From contig PS015010.1 in assembly GCA_048213135.1 (NCBI GenBank), positions 1,302,001-1,366,000 on the forward strand: a stretch of 64,000 bases of DNA, in the 5' to 3' direction. This DNA comes from Reclinomonas americana ATCC 50394. Lineage: Eukaryota. Shown piece by piece: positions 17,993 through 64,000 of this stretch; the stretch's first letter is position 1, and each line of letters begins with the position of its first letter. A program made the translations under genes and the position numbers. The notes below the pieces were generated by a model. That model ran no database searches and was not told where the DNA came from. It was given only the letters and a program-made list of their open reading frames with translations.

Positions 17993-18036
17993 NNNNNNNN
18001 NNNNNNNNNNNNNNNNNNNNNNNNNNNNNNNNNNNN
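17993..18036. other. assembly gap
   Basis: run of N. Confidence 1.
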
Positions 18037-50045: not shown

Positions 50046-50065
50046 NNNNNNNNNNNNNNNNNNNN

Positions 50066-51300: not shown

Positions 51301-51505
51301 NNNNNNNNNNNNNNNNNNNNNNNNNNNNNNNNNNNNNNNNNNNNNNNNNNNNNNNNNNNNNNNNNNNNNNNNNNNNNNNNNNNNNNNNNNNNNNNNNNNN
51401 NNNNNNNNNNNNNNNNNNNNNNNNNNNNNNNNNNNNNNNNNNNNNNNNNNNNNNNNNNNNNNNNNNNNNNNNNNNNNNNNNNNNNNNNNNNNNNNNNNNN
51501 NNNNN

Positions 51506-56739: not shown

Positions 56740-57723
56740 TCATTCCGGGATCTCTACAACCGTCCAGTTCTTGCTCCTTCTGCTGTAGAGGATATGATAA
56801 TCCTTTCCGTGCATGAGTTTATAAGTACGGTAGCCGTTGTAATAAGGCAGTTTAAGCCAGCCGTAATTGTAGATTTCAAATTTGAACACAAAGGCCTGTC
56901 CTGCTTTGATCTCTGCGGGTTGGAATTTTCTCCCGTCATCACTCAGTTGTACCGTTTCATCGCGGTTGCTCTGAATGGTGAGTGCGATCCAGGAAGGGTC
57001 ATTATCGGGTGTTGTCTGCGGAGTATTGGGATTGGGGTTGCCGGGGTTGGCAGGATAAGGATTGGGATTTGTAGGATATGGATTCGGGTTGGTTGGAGTT
57101 GGTGTCGGCGTTGCAGTGCCTGTATTACTGCCGGAATTCGCTGTACCGGGATTGTTGCTGGTTCTGGCCGCATTCCATCCACGTGTAATGGCCGCCAGCC
57201 TGTCGCTTTTCGCAGGATGTGTGTTACTCGCCCTGTCGCTGCCCACAGCACGCATGGCCGCCAGTGCCTGGTCAAGCGTGGCTCCCATCCTGTTCATCAT
57301 ATAACCGGAAAATGCGTCGGCCTCTATTTCTGAAGGAATGGTACTGCCCTGCCCGCTTACTACGTGGTTATAATAGTGATGTCCCATTTCATGCGCCATG
57401 ATGCTGAGACTGGCCCATTTGGTCTTGGCGTACTCATCTATATCTTCCAGGAAATTATTATCATACACGATCCAGCGGCGACCGCCCATAATAGTAGCGT
57501 AGGCATTCTGTATACCGTTCTGTTCACGCAGGTTAAAATTTTCTTTCCACTTGATGGTATCCAGCATATGGTTCACGATTTCCTTTGCCTCATAAACCGA
57601 CTGGAATTTGGTGGTAAGCGACCGGGGCGGAATGATATAGCCACAGGGCGTCAGTTTTTGCGCCGCTGCAAACTGCAGCAGTAAAAAAGTTCCGGCGATT
57701 GAAAAAAGTAAGCGTTTCATCAT
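56740..57723 (-). CDS. secreted HExxH metallopeptidase (M48-like) with Pro/Asn-rich linker
   Basis: signal peptide, QNAYA, AHEMGH, EIEADAF, THP...R; (NPNPYP)n linker. Confidence 0.8.
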   Translation of the reverse strand: MMKRLLFSIAGTFLLLQFAAAQKLTPCGYIIPPRSLTTKFQSVYEAKEIVNHMLDTIKWKENFNLREQNGIQNAYATIMGGRRWIVYDNNFLEDIDEYAKTKWASLSIMAHEMGHHYYNHVVSGQGSTIPSEIEADAFSGYMMNRMGATLDQALAAMRAVGSDRASNTHPAKSDRLAAITRGWNAARTSNNPGTANSGSNTGTATPTPTPTNPNPYPTNPNPYPANPGNPNPNTPQTTPDNDPSWIALTIQSNRDETVQLSDDGRKFQPAEIKAGQAFVFKFEIYNYGWLKLPYYNGYRTYKLMHGKDYHILYSRRSKNWTVVEIPE

Positions 57724-57812: not shown

Positions 57813-58859
57813 TTATGCCACTTCTGCCAGTTTATTGAACAGCGTATCCATTTCATTGTCGAGGTAAGACTGGACCAGGTTCACATACCGGTAAAAGGAC
57901 TTGCTGTCGCTGGCATGACCGGATATTTTTTTCACCACATGCTCTTTCATGCCCAGCATCAGCATGGTGGTTATGGCCGTACGGCGCATGGTATGAGAAG
58001 AGATCATATCACAAAAGCGGGTTGGGTCTGCCGGCGCCTGTACACCTACTCCCCTCCTCGACCTTTGCCTTGTTATGGCCTGTGTCCAGCCCGCCAGGCA
58101 GGCTATCTCTTTGAGTTGTGCATTGAAACGGCTAAGCGGTATAGGCGGGAAGATCGCTTTTCTCCGCTTCGCTGTTTCCCTGAACCGCCGGATGATCTCC
58201 ATGCAATAGGCTGGCAATTTAATACGTACCGCAGCCGAAGTTTTGATACTGGTAACAGGCAGATAATGCTGCCCTCCTACTTCTTCGATGTCGGAGAATT
58301 TAATGGCAAACAGGTCCGATACCCGCAGGGCTACCGTACATCCGAATACGAAGATGTCTTTGGTTTTACGTAATGACCGGCTCAGCGATGCGTCAAATTC
58401 GTGGTTATTGATGAGAAATTGTAACTGTTCCGGCATCAGTGTTACAATTGGAACTTCCTCCTTGCGTACATAAAATGATTTATGGAAGTTACCCGCAGGA
58501 ATGCCGAGGTCCTTTTCAATAAAGTTGAAAAAGATGCGGACGACCTTGATCACGGCGCCGGTATAATTATCGTAGCATTGTTTTTCCTGGTAGAGATAGG
58601 CGGTAAAATCGAGGTAGAATTTTTTCCAGTAATTGCGCTCTGCAGTTATCAGCCGTTTATTGGTATTGCCTGCGGGCTTTATCCGGATAATGGCGCCCGT
58701 CTTCAGTTCATACGCTTTAAGGTAGCTTAAAACATACCTGTAATTAACCACCGTTTGCGGGCGGATGCGGCCGCCATCGGGTTTTAGTCTTTTACCATTA
58801 AGGCTGTAGCGGATGAACTTTTCGAAGAGGGGAATAAGCGGGTATTCTTTTGTAGGCAT
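57813..58859 (-). CDS. tyrosine recombinase (site-specific integrase/invertase)
   Basis: intact catalytic set: ALRVSDL (R), IKT (K), SHTMRR (HxxR), SGH, FYRY (Y). Confidence 0.93.
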   Translation of the reverse strand: MPTKEYPLIPLFEKFIRYSLNGKRLKPDGGRIRPQTVVNYRYVLSYLKAYELKTGAIIRIKPAGNTNKRLITAERNYWKKFYLDFTAYLYQEKQCYDNYTGAVIKVVRIFFNFIEKDLGIPAGNFHKSFYVRKEEVPIVTLMPEQLQFLINNHEFDASLSRSLRKTKDIFVFGCTVALRVSDLFAIKFSDIEEVGGQHYLPVTSIKTSAAVRIKLPAYCMEIIRRFRETAKRRKAIFPPIPLSRFNAQLKEIACLAGWTQAITRQRSRRGVGVQAPADPTRFCDMISSHTMRRTAITTMLMLGMKEHVVKKISGHASDSKSFYRYVNLVQSYLDNEMDTLFNKLAEVA

Positions 58860-58970
58860 AAGATGGATTTTTGAGATTGAAAAATATTCACTTTTAGAGC
58901 GATTATGTTAAATTACAACAGAACCGGCTCTTTGAAAAGCAAACCTGCAAAGGACTTGAGCAGAATGATC

Positions 58971-58997
58971 ATTATCCCTTTGGGATGATGATGCCGG
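58971..58997 (+). repeat. left inverted repeat (27 bp), candidate recombination site
   Basis: attatccctttgggatgatgatgccgg, exact reverse complement of 62385-62411. Confidence 0.92.
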
Positions 58998-59953
58998 GGA
59001 GGGTGGCCAGTATCAGCGGTATTGATTATAAATTCACGGTTAATGGACAGGAAAAGGAAACTGACCTCAACAAAAATATCACTTCTGCTCCGTACTGGAT
59101 GTATGACAGCAGGGTGGCAAAGAGGTGGAATGTAGATCCGAGGCCAAATGTGTCGATAAGCCCTTATAATTGTTTCGCTGCAAATCCCATATGGTTTTCT
59201 GATATCAAAGGAGATACGATCAGGGGAGAGAACGGCTTCGATAAAGCAGCTTACAGGGCTGCATTGGTAGAACAGGTCGCTCTATTGGAACAATACAAAA
59301 AGGATGGCTTACCGGGTGGAATGGCAGGGAATAATAAAAATCTTAACTTGAAGTTAAATGAAATGAAGGCGGCATTGAAAACATATGATGCGCTGGAAGC
59401 AAGAAAAGATATCATTGTAGTCAGGAAAGGAGATCCGGCAACAAATGCGAATGAAGCCTGGACTAATTTCAATGTTGCACAGAATGCGCCGCGGATTGAT
59501 ATTGGAACAAGCGTTAAGGATGGGGATTATTTTTTAATTTCACATGAAATGCAGCACGTGGAAGATTATTATGAAGGACGATTCTCATTTGCTGCAGATG
59601 GATCAGGAGGCATCCTGGTTGACATATATGATGAGGTAGGCCCCAACAACAGGCAGGAAATTATTTCATCGGGTATTGTTGCGGCATCCCCTAATCCAAC
59701 GACCTGGACCGCGACAACTTTACCAAACAAAGTGTTTGGAGACGGCACAACACCCTATAACACACTTCCTAAGGATAAGCGGGTATTGTCTGATGCGAAA
59801 TGGTCAACTTTGTTAAAAGCAGAAACAGTAAAAAGTGTTAATGAGAATAAACCACAACCTCACTATTATGTAGGGTGGGAAAAAGACCGGGCTGAAGCCG
59901 AAGCGGCAAAAAAAGCGGCAGATGAAAAAGCAAAGGCTGAAGGTCCCAAGTAA
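58985..59953 (+). CDS. orphan Rhs C-terminal cassette (core end plus HExxH metallopeptidase-like toxin)
   Basis: reads (NDHYPFG)MMMPGR...NGQEKE...YDSRVAKRWNVDP...NPIWFSDIKGD, then a domain with SHEMQH; no Rhs body upstream (in-frame TAG at 58895-58897). Confidence 0.85.
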   Translation: MMMPGRVASISGIDYKFTVNGQEKETDLNKNITSAPYWMYDSRVAKRWNVDPRPNVSISPYNCFAANPIWFSDIKGDTIRGENGFDKAAYRAALVEQVALLEQYKKDGLPGGMAGNNKNLNLKLNEMKAALKTYDALEARKDIIVVRKGDPATNANEAWTNFNVAQNAPRIDIGTSVKDGDYFLISHEMQHVEDYYEGRFSFAADGSGGILVDIYDEVGPNNRQEIISSGIVAASPNPTTWTATTLPNKVFGDGTTPYNTLPKDKRVLSDAKWSTLLKAETVKSVNENKPQPHYYVGWEKDRAEAEAAKKAADEKAKAEGPK

Positions 59954-59962
59954 CAGCTCAAT

Positions 59963-60538
59963 ATGAAAAGAAATATAGTATTCATCGTGTACTGGTTGCT
60001 TATACCCGTACTTGTACAGTCCCAGGTAAAGGAAGGTCTTTACCTGGGTGAGAATAGCAGCGGAAGGTTACTGGTCAAAGCCGACAATACTGCGGAATTT
60101 TTTATGAGATATGAAACATCGGTATCTTTTAAATTCAAATGCAGGATAATAACGACAACGGACTCGTCTTTCCAGCTTGAGAACATAGGCGAGGTTAAAG
60201 ACAAAATTACCCAGCGTAAGAAAAAGAACAGAAGCAATGAAGTGTCAGTTAACTTCTACGCAATAGATATCGCAGGTCAAAGTTCGCCGGTTTCTGTAAA
60301 TTATGAGTTGATGTCCTGTTCGGATCAAGGAAGCGGAAGCAAAACATGCATCTGTTTTTTTTATAACAACAGGCTTTATTGCCATATTGTGAATACCAGG
60401 CAAAACGACATTTCGATATATATAGATGCAGCCAATTCTTTCCTGATAAAAAGCTGGAAGATAAGCGGAGACAGGCTGATACCTTATATAAATGGCAGAA
60501 TGACCGACAAGTGGATACTCAGGCGGCAGCATAATTAA
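59963..60538 (+). CDS. putative immunity protein for the orphan cassette, secreted
   Basis: starts 9 bp after the toxin stop, signal peptide, AT-rich; role inferred from position. Confidence 0.6.
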   Translation: MKRNIVFIVYWLLIPVLVQSQVKEGLYLGENSSGRLLVKADNTAEFFMRYETSVSFKFKCRIITTTDSSFQLENIGEVKDKITQRKKKNRSNEVSVNFYAIDIAGQSSPVSVNYELMSCSDQGSGSKTCICFFYNNRLYCHIVNTRQNDISIYIDAANSFLIKSWKISGDRLIPYINGRMTDKWILRRQHN

Positions 60539-60607
60539 AGTGACTTAAATCATGTATCTAACCCTGGATTTTTCGTTGTAAACAGATTGCCTTATTGATC
60601 AGCCAAC

Positions 60608-61324
60608 TCATTTCAGTTTTATAAGTGTTCCAGCCCGTTGCCTTTTTCTTTTGTCGCAGGGTTTGGAAGGCGCTTCAAATAAATCAATGTTCCTGCTATT
60701 GTTTTTTACAAAAGTGAAGTCATATTTCTTGCCTTCAATCTCCAGTACTATGCCGTTATAATATTTCCCGCAATCAATAAATGTGTAAATATGTTTTTGA
60801 CCGATAATATTATTATCTTTTATTAATGTACCACTATTACTTAAAAGTACACTTGAATACGACTTGAACCCTTTTTCTTCAAGAAGCCTGATATCAAAAA
60901 TCCCAGACAGGCATAATTTATTGATAGAATCAACTATTACCTGGGCGTCGCCAGAAGAGGAATGGGTTATGATAAAAGATATTGGTTCTGCTTTGCCAGA
61001 AGCTCCCGTTCTTTTTATCGACAAAAAAGCAGGATCAGAACCAGGCAGAATTTTTCCTTCACATTTCTTTAAAACCTCATCAGCATAAAAACATTTTTTT
61101 GCTGCATCCAGGAAAAAAGTCTGGTACTCAATCTGAACTGCGCTATAAGCATTAAACTGGTTATCGTCTGTAAATTCAAGAAGGATAAACTCTCCTTTAT
61201 ATGAAGAAGGGAATCCTCCCTTCTTCATATACCTGATATAATCGGTGTTTAAATAGTAGGTATTTGCCCGGACAATATATATGTTCAGTACAAACAACAG
61301 CAACAACAAACGCTTCTTTCGCAT
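60608..61324 (-). CDS. putative immunity protein for the attached Rhs toxin, secreted
   Basis: directly downstream of the Rhs gene, signal peptide MRKKRLLLLLFV, AT-rich; role inferred from position. Confidence 0.6.
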   Translation of the reverse strand: MRKKRLLLLLFVLNIYIVRANTYYLNTDYIRYMKKGGFPSSYKGEFILLEFTDDNQFNAYSAVQIEYQTFFLDAAKKCFYADEVLKKCEGKILPGSDPAFLSIKRTGASGKAEPISFIITHSSSGDAQVIVDSINKLCLSGIFDIRLLEEKGFKSYSSVLLSNSGTLIKDNNIIGQKHIYTFIDCGKYYNGIVLEIEGKKYDFTFVKNNSRNIDLFEAPSKPCDKRKRQRAGTLIKLK

Positions 61325-61347
61325 GGGTACATTTTATTCTTTACTTG

Positions 61348-64000
61348 TTACGGCCCACCTGAAGGAGGTACCGGGGTTGCGGGTGCTGTAGATGCCGGGG
61401 CCGGTGGCGTTGGTTTTTTAACATTTTTCCTTACCTCGGTTACCCGGTATTCTGTTATGTCGGCATAACTCATAGGCACATTTGTATCGTCGGATAACTT
61501 GTCCGGAGAATAATAGAACTTATTTTCTGTCAGGTTATCGCCATCAGCACCAGGCTCTCCCGGATCATGATATGAAACCGCATTGTCAAGATAAGAAAAA
61601 TAATTACCATTAGCGTCAGTTCCCATTCCTACTATCACAACAAAGTGCTGAGTTTTAACATTGTAGTTTTTAAATTTTGAAGTCAACACGCCACCATCCG
61701 GCTCAGCAGCGGTTACTTCAGTTAGTCCAACCATTATGGGCTCACCATTCTGGAGCGATTCTTTGATAGCAAGTATGCCTTTTACATATTCTTCTTTCAA
61801 GTTGGGTTTCTTATACCGTTTCTGAAGTACATTATCGGCGTGCATGGTTATTTGCTGACTTGGCCCCACAGCTGCAACACCGGCATCTTTCAATTGTGTA
61901 TCTGCTGCTTTCTTGCAATTTCTTCCGCAAGCTGCGTAGGTACGTAATGCGGCGCCTCCTGTAACATCAGGCACATCTGTCCATGCGTCTGACAATGCAT
62001 AACTATTGGTATTAATATCGTCAACGGTACCCGCAGAAATGTTGGTCTGCACAGCTTTAAGTGTTTGGGTCTTAACAAAATCATCACTTACAATCCGTTG
62101 TTCATTACTTGTGCCGTATTTTCCAATCAATGTTCCGTTTGTGGTATAATACTCCTCAAGCCCATCAAGATCTACACACCATATGGGTTTATTACCCGCA
62201 AACTGGTAAGGGGTGTACCAGGGATATGACTGAGTCAGCGGATCAACGCTCAGGAACTTGCCCAGGCGGGGATCGTACATCCGCATACCATAATCCTGAA
62301 CATTTCCGTTCCCTTTCAGTTCATTGTCGTTTTCTTTACCATTAAATCCATACCTGTACTGATTTGAGGCTGCAAATTTCCTTTCCGGCATCATCATCCC
62401 AAAGGGATAATAGTCATTTGCGTTAATAACATCTGCCGTATAATAGTCAGCTATGCCATCAGGAGTATTGCTCACTTTTACATAAATAGGATCGCATTGT
62501 GGTGGCGGACCTCCCGGTGGCGGTGGCGCACATGGCGGATATACCCAGGTATATTCTCCATCATCTACCTGGAATTTCCTGTCAGATACGGTTACCAGTA
62601 CATTGCTCAAATGATTAGTGAGCTCAAAGAACTTCTTCCCTCTTTCAAAAACAGTCAATCCTGAACCGGCTGGCGGATTCTGCACATCGCGGTTCACATT
62701 GAACACGCCTATACGCGTACTGCCATATAGGTGTACCTCACTCTGGGTAAGGTGTCCGCTATTGAGGTTTGACCGCTTCTCATATACTGCCATTATATTC
62801 CCGCTCGCATCTTTTACATACCAGGTAGTCAGTCCGTCTACTGTTTTACTTATACGGTTGCCGGCGGCATCATAGGTATAACTGATAACGTACCCTACAC
62901 TTCCCGATCCTTTATTCAGGGACTTTATTTTACCATAAACGGTCCAGGTTATGCCGCTTATATCCTCCTTATCATCCTTGGTCATGTTGCCAATCGCGTC
63001 ATATCCATAGTTATCATCCGGCTGATTGTCGACGTCATCAGCACTGTAGGTACTGCTTACGGCATCCTTAACATGACGCAGGCGGTTGTTGACCAGTTTA
63101 CCCGATTGTATGTTATAGCCGTAAGTAAGGTTATCCATAAGATTACCATCAGCACCGTTACGTTTATAGGTTTTGATATTGCCGTTGGCATCGTAAGTGA
63201 TATCCTCCCTGTAAGCATTGGTAGCCGATACGTTCCAACTGTTTGTGGCAATATTTAAACCCTTATACGTACTCATCTTGGTCAGGCGGTTCAGCTGATC
63301 ATAACGATAAGTGTACAGCAAGGCCCCTTCCTGTGCACTGGTGGTGGTAAACTTGCCGATATTGACACTCATTGCCGAGATATTACCATTATAAAGTCCT
63401 ACGAAACCAAATCCCGCAGCGGCAGGGTTAGCAAAAGGCTTAACGGAATTATCAATTGGTTTATAGTCGAATTGCCCCTGGGTTTCATTCTGGAAATAGT
63501 GCAGCGCATAACCAAATGCGTCCCTGGCCACATAGCCATTGACACCGCCCGGTATACCATCTGCCCCCATGTCATGCAAACCATCGCCGATGGCAGAGGT
63601 ATTTACCCCTTTAATCCACCCCTGCAGGGTATAACTGTAATCCAGCCCCTGCACCTGCTGTTGTCCAAGTACAATACGCGACAAAGGACCGTGCCGGTAA
63701 TAGGCATAACTGGCATCCCGTTCCCAAACCAGGCTATCATGGCTGGTGTATACGTCTGTAAGCTTATTCTCCGCATCGTACGCATAGCGATGGTAGAACT
63801 GGTCGGCCGGACTTACCCAGGCCTGTGCGGAAGAACTGTAATAACCGGGCTGGTAAGTTACCATGTTCACTTTACCACTGATAAGATCATAGTTGTAAGC
63901 TATTTTCTTATACCTGTTATCGCTGGTGTTCATGATATTGCTGTAATACTGGCTGCTGCCATAGTCCTGCAACAATGTATCCACATTACCATGTATATCA
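61348..64000 (-). CDS. Rhs/YD-repeat polymorphic toxin with papain-like (C39-like) C-terminal domain; 5' part outside window
   Basis: YD repeats (YDQLNRL, YDANGNI, YDAAGNR), DYYPFG, YGFNGKE, YDPRLGKFLSVDP, NKPIWCVDLDGL, then NC...HFVVIVG...D; frame open to window edge. Confidence 0.93.
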   Translation of the reverse strand, partial: DIHGNVDTLLQDYGSSQYYSNIMNTSDNRYKKIAYNYDLISGKVNMVTYQPGYYSSSAQAWVSPADQFYHRYAYDAENKLTDVYTSHDSLVWERDASYAYYRHGPLSRIVLGQQQVQGLDYSYTLQGWIKGVNTSAIGDGLHDMGADGIPGGVNGYVARDAFGYALHYFQNETQGQFDYKPIDNSVKPFANPAAAGFGFVGLYNGNISAMSVNIGKFTTTSAQEGALLYTYRYDQLNRLTKMSTYKGLNIATNSWNVSATNAYREDITYDANGNIKTYKRNGADGNLMDNLTYGYNIQSGKLVNNRLRHVKDAVSSTYSADDVDNQPDDNYGYDAIGNMTKDDKEDISGITWTVYGKIKSLNKGSGSVGYVISYTYDAAGNRISKTVDGLTTWYVKDASGNIMAVYEKRSNLNSGHLTQSEVHLYGSTRIGVFNVNRDVQNPPAGSGLTVFERGKKFFELTNHLSNVLVTVSDRKFQVDDGEYTWVYPPCAPPPPGGPPPQCDPIYVKVSNTPDGIADYYTADVINANDYYPFGMMMPERKFAASNQYRYGFNGKENDNELKGNGNVQDYGMRMYDPRLGKFLSVDPLTQSYPWYTPYQFAGNKPIWCVDLDGLEEYYTTNGTLIGKYGTSNEQRIVSDDFVKTQTLKAVQTNISAGTVDDINTNSYALSDAWTDVPDVTGGAALRTYAACGRNCKKAADTQLKDAGVAAVGPSQQITMHADNVLQKRYKKPNLKEEYVKGILAIKESLQNGEPIMVGLTEVTAAEPDGGVLTSKFKNYNVKTQHFVVIVGMGTDANGNYFSYLDNAVSYHDPGEPGADGDNLTENKFYYSPDKLSDDTNVPMSYADITEYRVTEVRKNVKKPTPPAPASTAPATPVPPSGGP
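62385..62411 (-). repeat. right inverted repeat (27 bp) inside the Rhs gene, candidate recombination site
   Basis: plus strand ccggcatcatcatcccaaagggataat; encodes YPFGMMMP on the minus strand. Confidence 0.92.

Follow-up and report, generated by a model that had tools for sequence, protein, structure and literature searches.

This study concerns a candidate toxin-switching locus at the right-hand end of a 64,000-nucleotide (nt) stretch of DNA, hereafter the window, taken from contig PS015010.1 (positions 1,302,001 to 1,366,000, forward strand) of the Reclinomonas americana ATCC 50394 assembly GCA_048213135.1. The locus belongs to a Bacteroidota bacterium. It contains the 3' end of the body of an Rhs toxin gene, two alternative Rhs C-termini (tips A and B) in opposite orientations, a small candidate immunity gene behind each tip (immA and immB), and a gene for a tyrosine recombinase. 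An earlier note on this DNA had given the order as Rhs body, tip B and immB on the minus strand, immA and tip A on the plus strand, and the recombinase again on the minus strand. This order was confirmed by the open reading frames (ORFs) at 61348–63999(−), 60608–61324(−), 59963–60538(+), 58985–59953(+), and 57813–58859(−), and all coordinates and counts of that note were correct on re-examination. The features of the locus are listed below in window coordinates, with protein lengths in amino acids (aa).

57813–58859, minus strand: tyrosine recombinase, 348 aa, outside the putative invertible segment and co-directional with the Rhs gene.
58928–58935, plus strand: CTCTTTGA, a leader motif with the consensus TTCTTTGA in the family, 45 nt ahead of the orphan-side site (counted to its Tyr codon).
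58964–59002 (perfect core 58971–58997), plus strand: left repeat arm, which heads the orphan tip A and encodes NDHYPFGMMMPGR.
58985–59953, plus strand: tip A, the parked orphan, 322 aa, with its start at Met codons within the repeat; the remainder of the Rhs core followed by a toxin domain.
59963–60538, plus strand: candidate immunity gene A (immA), 191 aa, directly behind tip A, with a hydrophobic, signal-like N-terminus.
60608–61324, minus strand: candidate immunity gene B (immB), 238 aa, directly behind tip B, with a hydrophobic, signal-like N-terminus.
61348–62384, minus strand: tip B, fused to the body at present; a toxin domain preceded by the remainder of the Rhs core, which includes ...VDLDGLEE.
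62380–62418 (perfect core 62385–62411), minus strand: right repeat arm, inside the Rhs gene, encoding NDYYPFGMMMPER; the proposed crossover site, where the TIGR03696 match begins.
62419–64000, minus strand: 3' end of the Rhs body, the constant part of the gene; ORF 61348–63999 is open at its 5' end and leaves the window.

The two tips and their immunity genes lie between the arms of an inverted repeat (58964–59002 and 62380–62418) that is complementary at 35 of its 39 nt (90%) and has a perfect core of 27 nt (58971–58997 and 62385–62411). The segment between the core ends, 58971–62411, is 3441 nt long, and the start codon of the recombinase (58859) is 112 nt from the core (58971). The repeat lengths, the recombinase distance, and the segment length reported earlier could all be reproduced from these coordinates. 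A 23-nt part of the core has exactly two copies in the 64-kb window, one per strand, and no match to it was found in 100 dinucleotide-preserving shuffles, even with up to 3 mismatches. Both arms code for YPFGMMMP, as had been claimed, and the core begins at codon base 2 in each arm, so that an exchange inside the core keeps the frame. The left arm reads TGA(58958–60)-Q-N-D-H-Y-P-F-G-M-M-M-P-G-R-V and the right arm N-D-Y-Y-P-F-G-M-M-M-P-E-R-K-F. Since the TGA closes the frame 5' of the left arm, tip A is an orphan ORF with its start inside the repeat. The window thus has the layout of a shufflon, in which alternative C-termini of one gene lie between in-frame inverted repeats and a recombinase gene adjoins them.

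The position of the repeat within the Rhs protein is well defined. The Rhs-associated core model TIGR03696 (Rhs_assc_core) matches the Rhs ORF at residues 530–614 with 48.3 bits (cut-off 32.5), and this domain begins exactly at the repeat, with YPFGMMMP among its first residues. Only the last 530 residues of the body are within the window, where RHS_repeat PF05593 scores 18.2 bits, below its cut-off of 22; in homologous loci the bodies upstream of the equivalent site are 1441 to at least 2551 aa long. Tips A and B are homologous over their first 87 residues only (39% identity, E 2e-14), a region that runs through a ...DP...PY...NP(I/V)W..D..G motif, and are unrelated beyond it. The diverged copy of the Rhs core in tip A stays below the threshold of the TIGR03696 hidden Markov model, and the best representative relatives of tip A (72% and 58% identity) are C-termini of longer Rhs fragments. 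The toxin domain of tip A carries a metallopeptidase-like HEMQH motif, and tip A is near the Peptidase_M91 and Tox-MPTase2 clusters in a protein atlas, which we take as leads only; tip B gives a weak papain-like signal (Peptidase_C1, E 0.039, below threshold), also a lead only. No curated Pfam or NCBIfam family was above threshold for either toxin domain or for either candidate immunity ORF. We infer by position only that the two small ORFs are immunity genes. The GC content is 0.354 for immB, 0.396 for immA, 43–44% for the toxin parts, 47.7% for the recombinase gene, and 0.476 for the window. When representative proteins were searched with tip A, 84 of the 149 matches (P0250–P0398) had their start in register with the Met of YPFGM; 71 of these stand-alone proteins were 250–450 aa long. 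Judging from these predicted proteins, orphan tips beginning exactly at the YPFGM site are widespread.

The recombinase matches Pfam PF00589 (Phage_integrase) over residues 170–327 with 41 bits (cut-off 27.1, E 2.3e-10). Its AlphaFold model has a mean pLDDT of 74.6, and Foldseek placed it closest to XerA (5hxy, E 4.6e-8), followed by Cre, Tn1549 Int, XerH, lambda Int, and the integron integrase IntI (2a3v). The TM-scores of these matches were 0.4–0.55, and the fold is the two-domain type of Xer, Cre, and lambda Int. Among 23 homologues of the recombinase, R179, K206, H289, H315, and Y325 are invariant, and R292 and Y323 are at least 90% conserved. NCBIfam gave Xer-type matches only, all far below their cut-offs, and no match to any Rci model; NF040815 (XerA / integron integrase) reached 38.6 bits against a cut-off of 220, which is short of an assignment to the IntI type. 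From its family and its position, this enzyme would be the one that catalyses the exchange between the arms. Directly downstream of the recombinase gene is an ORF at 56740–57723(−) with a Peptidase_M48-like match (E 5.1e-8), an HEMGHH motif, and a Pro/Asn-rich linker, and it seems to be outside the switch.

We propose that the locus is a programmed DNA-inversion switch, and we put the probability of this reading at roughly 0.7. The recombinase would recombine the two inverted core sites of about 27 bp, which fall in the (D)YYPFGM codons that open the RHS-associated core, and the crossover would probably fall within the 22–27 nt that are common to all arm pairs. By inversion of the 3.44-kb segment 58971–62411, tip B and immB would leave the body and be parked beside the recombinase, and tip A would be fused in frame to the body with immA directly behind it. 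About 350 C-terminal residues of the Rhs protein would thereby be swapped together with the adjoining immunity gene, and both immunity genes would stay in the genome in either state. The immunity gene of the parked cassette is presumably still expressed, possibly from the TTCTTTGA leader, and in relatives the same enzyme may delete or insert cassettes between direct sites.

If the recombinase acts on these sites, the two should be linked in other genomes. Homologues of the recombinase numbered 2071 at E ≤0.001, and the named ones among the top 120 were mostly from Ferruginibacter and other Chitinophagaceae. We compared 85 loci, namely the window, 79 loci from a scan of one genome per species, and five from a metagenome scan with the recombinase (best identity 73%; a 16.6-kb contig of the Joint Genome Institute (JGI), described below, was not among them). 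The loci come from Chitinophagaceae, Flavobacteriales, and relatives. An Rhs site was present at a fixed distance beside the recombinase gene in 57 of the 85 loci, over a range of 38–97% protein identity and in two geometries. In the U-type (31 loci, including the window), the site is about 88–139 nt upstream of the recombinase start and divergent from it; in the D-type (26 loci), it is about 100–200 nt past the recombinase stop and co-directional. Of the 28 loci that lack a site, many have hardly any flanking sequence where the site would be expected. A stricter motif recovered sites in 60 of the 85 loci, always confined to one side of the recombinase gene, with 87 sites in 322 kb on that side versus none in 415 kb on the other.

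A partner for the recombinase-adjacent site was sought in those 20 loci whose sequence extends 6 kb or more beyond the site. Sixteen of them have an inverted partner 2.8–8.7 kb away, one has a direct partner only, and three have no partner. In 13 of the 16, the inverted partner is inside an ORF that extends at least 300 aa upstream, and the bodies reach 2364 and 2551 aa. A search for nucleotide repeats, which was independent of the motif, gave the same picture, as every recombinase-adjacent inverted pair that it returned codes for the same Rhs position, including pairs with the motif variants DYYPGGM, DYYAFGS, DYYPFGS, DYAPFGM, and DYYSGGM. The earlier note had suggested that recombinase homologues be looked for beside inverted Rhs tips, and the association is borne out by these counts. 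Judged by gene arrangement, the same design recurs across Bacteroidota. A long-read chromosome from a metagenome-assembled genome (MAG), L013, differs in that the recombinase-adjacent orphan (5793) is inverted against another orphan (9892), with no Rhs body within 10 kb.

The two arms of a locus also resemble each other more than the coding motif demands. The wobble positions of the 15-nt core TAT-CCN-TTY-GGN-ATG vary between genomes, and the two arms agree within a genome: the core is identical in 17 of 22 within-locus arm pairs versus 17 of 462 between-locus comparisons. The two arms thus co-vary at synonymous positions. In all loci the arm homology has a sharp outer edge, no more than a few bases from the DYY codons, and perfect identity between arms ranges from 22 nt (L063) to 300 nt (L016). 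In seven loci (the window, L003, L013, L030, L063, L066, and L078), perfect identity covers just 22–29 nt. Such lengths are at or below the range in which RecA works efficiently. Between related loci with 86–91% identity, homology spans the recombinase gene and the stub and ends at the site.

Both body-tip junctions were found in one isolate, Ferruginibacter sp. HRS2-29. Contig C38 of its assembly is a D-type locus with the 3' part of the recombinase gene, the repeat, tip X, and, further on, tip Y in inverted orientation followed by the repeat. Contig C37, with the recombinase and the repeat, ends 57 nt into the repeat, one base short of the first difference between X and Y. On contig C78 (1946 nt), 926 nt of an Rhs body are joined through the repeat to tip X, and this tip is identical to the copy on C38 over 1020/1020 nt. 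The same body (489/489 and 926/926 nt identical) is joined to tip Y on contigs C80 (1924 nt) and C36, where tip Y is identical over 1435/1435 and 474/474 nt. The same body end thus has both tips attached to it, and tip X occurs behind the recombinase as well as behind the body, which is what a culture with both orientations predicts. The genome has 18 TIGR03696 matches and the recombinase family at two loci only, and tips occur on both strands only at these two loci. The second of them (L099, G001:C141:49001-69000) has the recombinase followed by tips in the orientations + + + − − −, the last of which is fused to an Rhs body of at least 2551 aa. In the Rhs arrays of HRS2-29 that have no recombinase (C6 with four tips and C19 with two), all tips are direct.

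For the locus of the window, a flipped state is suggested by a public contig. A protein search with tip B, taken from its first Met, recovered P0123, a stand-alone tip B of 347 aa that is 100% identical, starts at the third Met of YPFGMMMP, and is encoded on a single JGI/IMG contig of 16,638 nt. JGI/IMG also has records identical to the recombinase, immA, and immB of the window, and for each of the three the longest contig is likewise 16,638 nt long. The protein collection contained none of eight possible stand-alone forms of tip A and none of five other forms of tip B. A stand-alone tip B beside these genes with no stand-alone tip A is predicted by the flipped state. Relatives in this state had been envisaged in the earlier note, and this tip B together with the HRS2-29 body that is joined to both tips answers to that description. 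A fusion of tip A to the body gave only two partial matches (24–40% coverage) among proteins of 565–2000 aa and no 100% match in 1.84 billion representatives of 50% clusters (best 72%), which leaves room for a fusion longer than 2000 aa or for a member hidden inside a 50% cluster.

Sequencing runs were compared with the window through Logan contigs, which are assembled, so that starts, ends, and minority junctions are not judgeable in them; the small-share runs X3–X5 were left out, and the uncovered stretches in X2, X6, and X7 (e.g. 62057–62707) carry no information. The contigs of run X1 break exactly at both cores, into 58511–58997 and 58968–60202 on the left and 60185–62411 and 62382–64000 on the right, with 30-nt overlaps. 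X1 is possibly the source sample, so these breaks are not independent of the window. By our reasoning, the two breaks would correspond to one extra path in a 31-mer graph that leads from the recombinase-side flank through the core into tip B; the X1 contigs do not show the breaks that the reciprocal junction would cause. A joint on opposite strands at 59001/62229 in X1 was considered as a flipped junction and rejected, as it belongs to a third, paralogous tip. This third tip (touching 58967–59001 and 62179–62229), from the same metagenome, has the same core after ...DVVSAQDH and runs to a ...DLDGLEE motif, which points to a further Rhs locus or strain that shares the site. Contig ends also accumulate at the site in relatives: 12 of the 49 downstream contig ends among the loci are 100–200 nt past the recombinase versus 0–1 in neighbouring 100-nt bins, and in two further MAGs the recombinase contig and the Rhs-body contig end at the same base, 55–59 nt into the repeat. 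Repeats of 55–59 nt can break some assemblers unaided. The window itself has runs of N at 17993–18036, 50046–50065, and 51301–51505, which break up ORFs around 50–51.5 kb.

Several observations weigh against an inversion switch. The flipped junction at the window locus was not seen directly in assembled contigs, and runs X6 and X7 share a contig that crosses the left arm in the orientation of the window. The flipped state of the 16.6-kb JGI/IMG contig is deduced from gene calls, and the collection also lacks the orphan tip A that the X1 contig 58968–60202 must encode, so that absence from it is weak evidence. The HRS2-29 locus is of the D-type, with a recombinase about 48–50% identical to that of the window, and exact duplicates of the body and both tips could mimic two states there, which would be less economical. 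In an all-against-all BLAST of the 85 loci, three close locus pairs were found and none was flipped relative to its partner. Five of the 22 arm pairs differ within the 15-nt core; the repeat sits in conserved coding sequence, and the arms of some relatives are 77–300 nt long, which is enough for homologous recombination. As for the enzyme, neither the recombinase protein nor the 23-sequence profile matched any solved structure by sequence, the model falls below a pLDDT of 50 from residue 327, around the C-terminal Tyr, and the conserved residues are presumed, by motif, to be the catalytic R-K-H-R-H-Y set. Finally, direct orphan arrays are present beside the recombinase in L033 (three orphans), L060, L008, and L020, and also in L065 and L068, and an indiscriminate recombinase would delete such arrays.

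The direct sites appear to be points of exchange as well. Loci L024 and L025, at 99.5% identity, are distinguished by a single tip-plus-immunity cassette that lies between two direct sites (L024:6061-8118 versus L025:6061). L025 carries the leader of one site directly in front of the tip of the other, and the crossover can be placed in a 22-nt window of the core, so cassettes are also lost or gained at this site. These two contigs are filed under Synechococcus and Methylophilus MAGs, probably through mis-binning of Bacteroidota DNA, and the same seems to apply to L053 (Akkermansia) and L062 (Hydrocarboniphaga). The leader TTCTTTGA, with at most one mismatch, precedes 49 of 78 orphan stubs versus 1 of 19 Rhs bodies, at a modal distance of 45–47 nt to the Tyr codon. 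The leader could serve as a promoter through which the immunity gene of the parked cassette stays expressed, or it could be an accessory site for the recombinase. It was considered as a promoter of the Bacteroidota type but does not match the TAnnTTTG consensus of these promoters.

These direct arrays are the ground for a first alternative, an integron-like platform in which the recombinase mainly captures and excises tip-plus-immunity cassettes at the adjoining site, as has been proposed for the arrays of rAID-1 (recombinase-associated acquired interbacterial defence). The inverted placement of Rhs would then be a by-product, with inversion incidental and tip swaps only occasional. The arrays themselves (L033 with its three orphans, L060, L008, L065, and L068), the single-cassette difference between L024 and L025 with its crossover in the 22-nt core window, the leader before 49 of 78 orphans, and the low GC content of the cassette genes would all be at home in such a platform, as would the end of homology at the site between loci of 86–91% identity, which indicates fast cassette turnover. 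A comparable arrangement has been described for rAID-1, with a XerD-like recombinase and integron-like repeats (10.1101/471110). However, an inverted partner in 16 of 20 loci, 13 of them in a full Rhs body, is unexpected for mere storage. Both junctions of one body in one HRS2-29 culture and the restriction of inverted tips in HRS2-29 to the loci where the recombinase is present also speak against this alternative. We consider it unlikely that the platform accounts for the locus in place of the inversion switch; the two are compatible rather than exclusive.

A combination of the two can be put forward only tentatively. The tyrosine recombinase family might use the DYYPFGM codons across the phylum for two jobs, reversible tip switching between inverted sites and cassette excision or insertion between direct sites. 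Bacteroidota Rhs loci would then be shufflon and integron in one, and the rAID immunity arrays of gut Bacteroidales would derive from this machinery by loss of the toxin part. The earlier description of the locus as a two-state switch fits the window and falls short of the relatives, which have up to six tips and direct arrays.

A second alternative, which we regard as improbable, is that RecA-dependent homologous recombination between the coding repeats swaps the tips and that the recombinase serves another role (e.g. island mobility) or is inactive. The repeat is a conserved coding motif, arms reach 300 nt in relatives such as L016, and the orphan Rhs tips of enterobacteria are reported to be exchanged by homologous recombination (PMC3967940). 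Against this alternative stands the fixed distance between recombinase and site that was found in 57 of 85 loci across 38–97% protein identity and two geometries. It also fits poorly with perfect identity of just 22–29 nt in seven loci, with a sharp outer edge of homology at the same codons everywhere, and with the uniformly direct tips of the recombinase-less arrays in HRS2-29. A static arrangement, in which the repeat reflects common descent of two convergent Rhs tips with no recombination today, is very improbable, for although the assembled contigs show no flipped junction at the window locus and the X6/X7 contig bridges the left arm in the orientation of the window, the arms co-vary at synonymous sites (17/22 versus 17/462), both junctions are present in the HRS2-29 assembly, P0123 is a stand-alone tip B gene, and contig ends accumulate at the site.

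In the shufflon of R64/IncI1 plasmids, C-terminal segments of pilV are inverted by the tyrosine recombinase Rci at sfx sites. The likeness to R64 drawn in the earlier note holds for the layout, with in-frame inverted C-termini and an adjoining recombinase gene, and is an analogy of layout rather than membership in the Rci/sfx family. Both systems combine a constant N-terminal part with alternative inverted C-terminal segments and have the repeats inside the coding frame, the tyrosine recombinase gene is just outside the invertible DNA, and several segments occur in relatives of the window locus (six tips on C141 of HRS2-29). In contrast to R64, where the target is a pilus adhesin, the target here is a secreted polymorphic toxin, and each segment carries a second gene, for immunity, that must travel along. 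The present locus is moreover chromosomal and in Bacteroidota, and direct arrays also occur. To our knowledge, the site sequence is unrelated to that of R64.

Within Bacteroidota, the system closest in description is rAID-1 of Bacteroidales (Ross et al., 10.1101/471110), whose authors report a XerD-like recombinase, integron-like repeats, and low-GC cassettes and state that the mechanism of array formation is unknown. According to the same text, rAID-1 contains co-oriented orphan immunity genes only, is confined to Bacteroidales, and is recognized by a recombinase at least 44% identical to BF9343_RS08045. Compared by these descriptions, the two share a Bacteroidota tyrosine recombinase beside low-GC polymorphic-toxin genes with conserved inter-cassette motifs, and our D-type relatives show the same order, with the recombinase followed by co-directional cassettes. 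Unlike rAID-1, which as described there has no full toxin gene or inverted partner, the present loci pair complete toxin tips with an intact Rhs gene to which they are inverted. rAID-1 is further defined by at least two co-directional short genes downstream of the recombinase, whereas the cassettes of the window are upstream and divergent; and of its cassette GC limit of ≤41%, immA (39.6%) and immB (35.4%) stay within it but the toxin parts (43–44%) exceed it. XerC/D-type recombinases have also been noted beside polyimmunity loci (Zhang et al. 2012, PMC3482391).

The orphan Rhs-CT/immunity modules of enterobacteria (Salmonella) are described as direct and as exchanged by homologous recombination (PMC3967940; PMC3150448). 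They resemble the present locus in having silent spare tips with immunity genes beside a full Rhs gene and a short shared core for swapping. Their spare tips are direct, and RecA-type activation deletes or duplicates DNA, whereas the orphan of the window is inverted, a dedicated recombinase is at hand, and the exchange would lose nothing. Other programmed inversions that alter genes are known from hsdS of type I restriction-modification systems, phage tail fibres (Gin/Cin and the Rin shufflon), and SusC/SusD (Milman et al. 2023, PMC9881135), and, as outlined in that survey, they share with our locus the inverted repeats inside coding sequence, a nearby recombinase, and alternative C-terminal alleles. 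The words Rhs, YD repeat, toxin, and polymorphic do not occur in the main text of that survey (PMC9881135), supplements aside. Among the matches listed for inversion or inverton papers, none mentions Rhs, save one on an unrelated prophage inversion. In the full-text literature searched, the scope of which did not include supplementary tables and subscription journals, we found no description of an inversion of Rhs or other polymorphic-toxin tips. We rate the locus as a shufflon-type programmed inversion with a new class of target and a previously uncharacterised recombinase subfamily, for which a prior description is possible.

Polymorphic toxins are thought to diversify by slow and lossy homologous recombination with silent spare tips. 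If the inversion switch is real, a dedicated tip-flipping enzyme would make toxin identity a fast, reversible, and heritable trait of a population. Each cell would be immune to both toxins while the clone presents two weapons, or up to six in relatives, and the modelling of kin discrimination and arms races in soil, water, and sludge communities would change. The role of the recombinases beside toxin/immunity arrays of Bacteroidota was called open in the rAID papers (PMC12247911), and the switch offers a testable mechanism for this question. The module is compact, as it would consist of a recombinase and a site of about 27 bp in a protein-coding motif, and Ferruginibacter sp. HRS2-29, an isolate that appears to switch, is already in culture.

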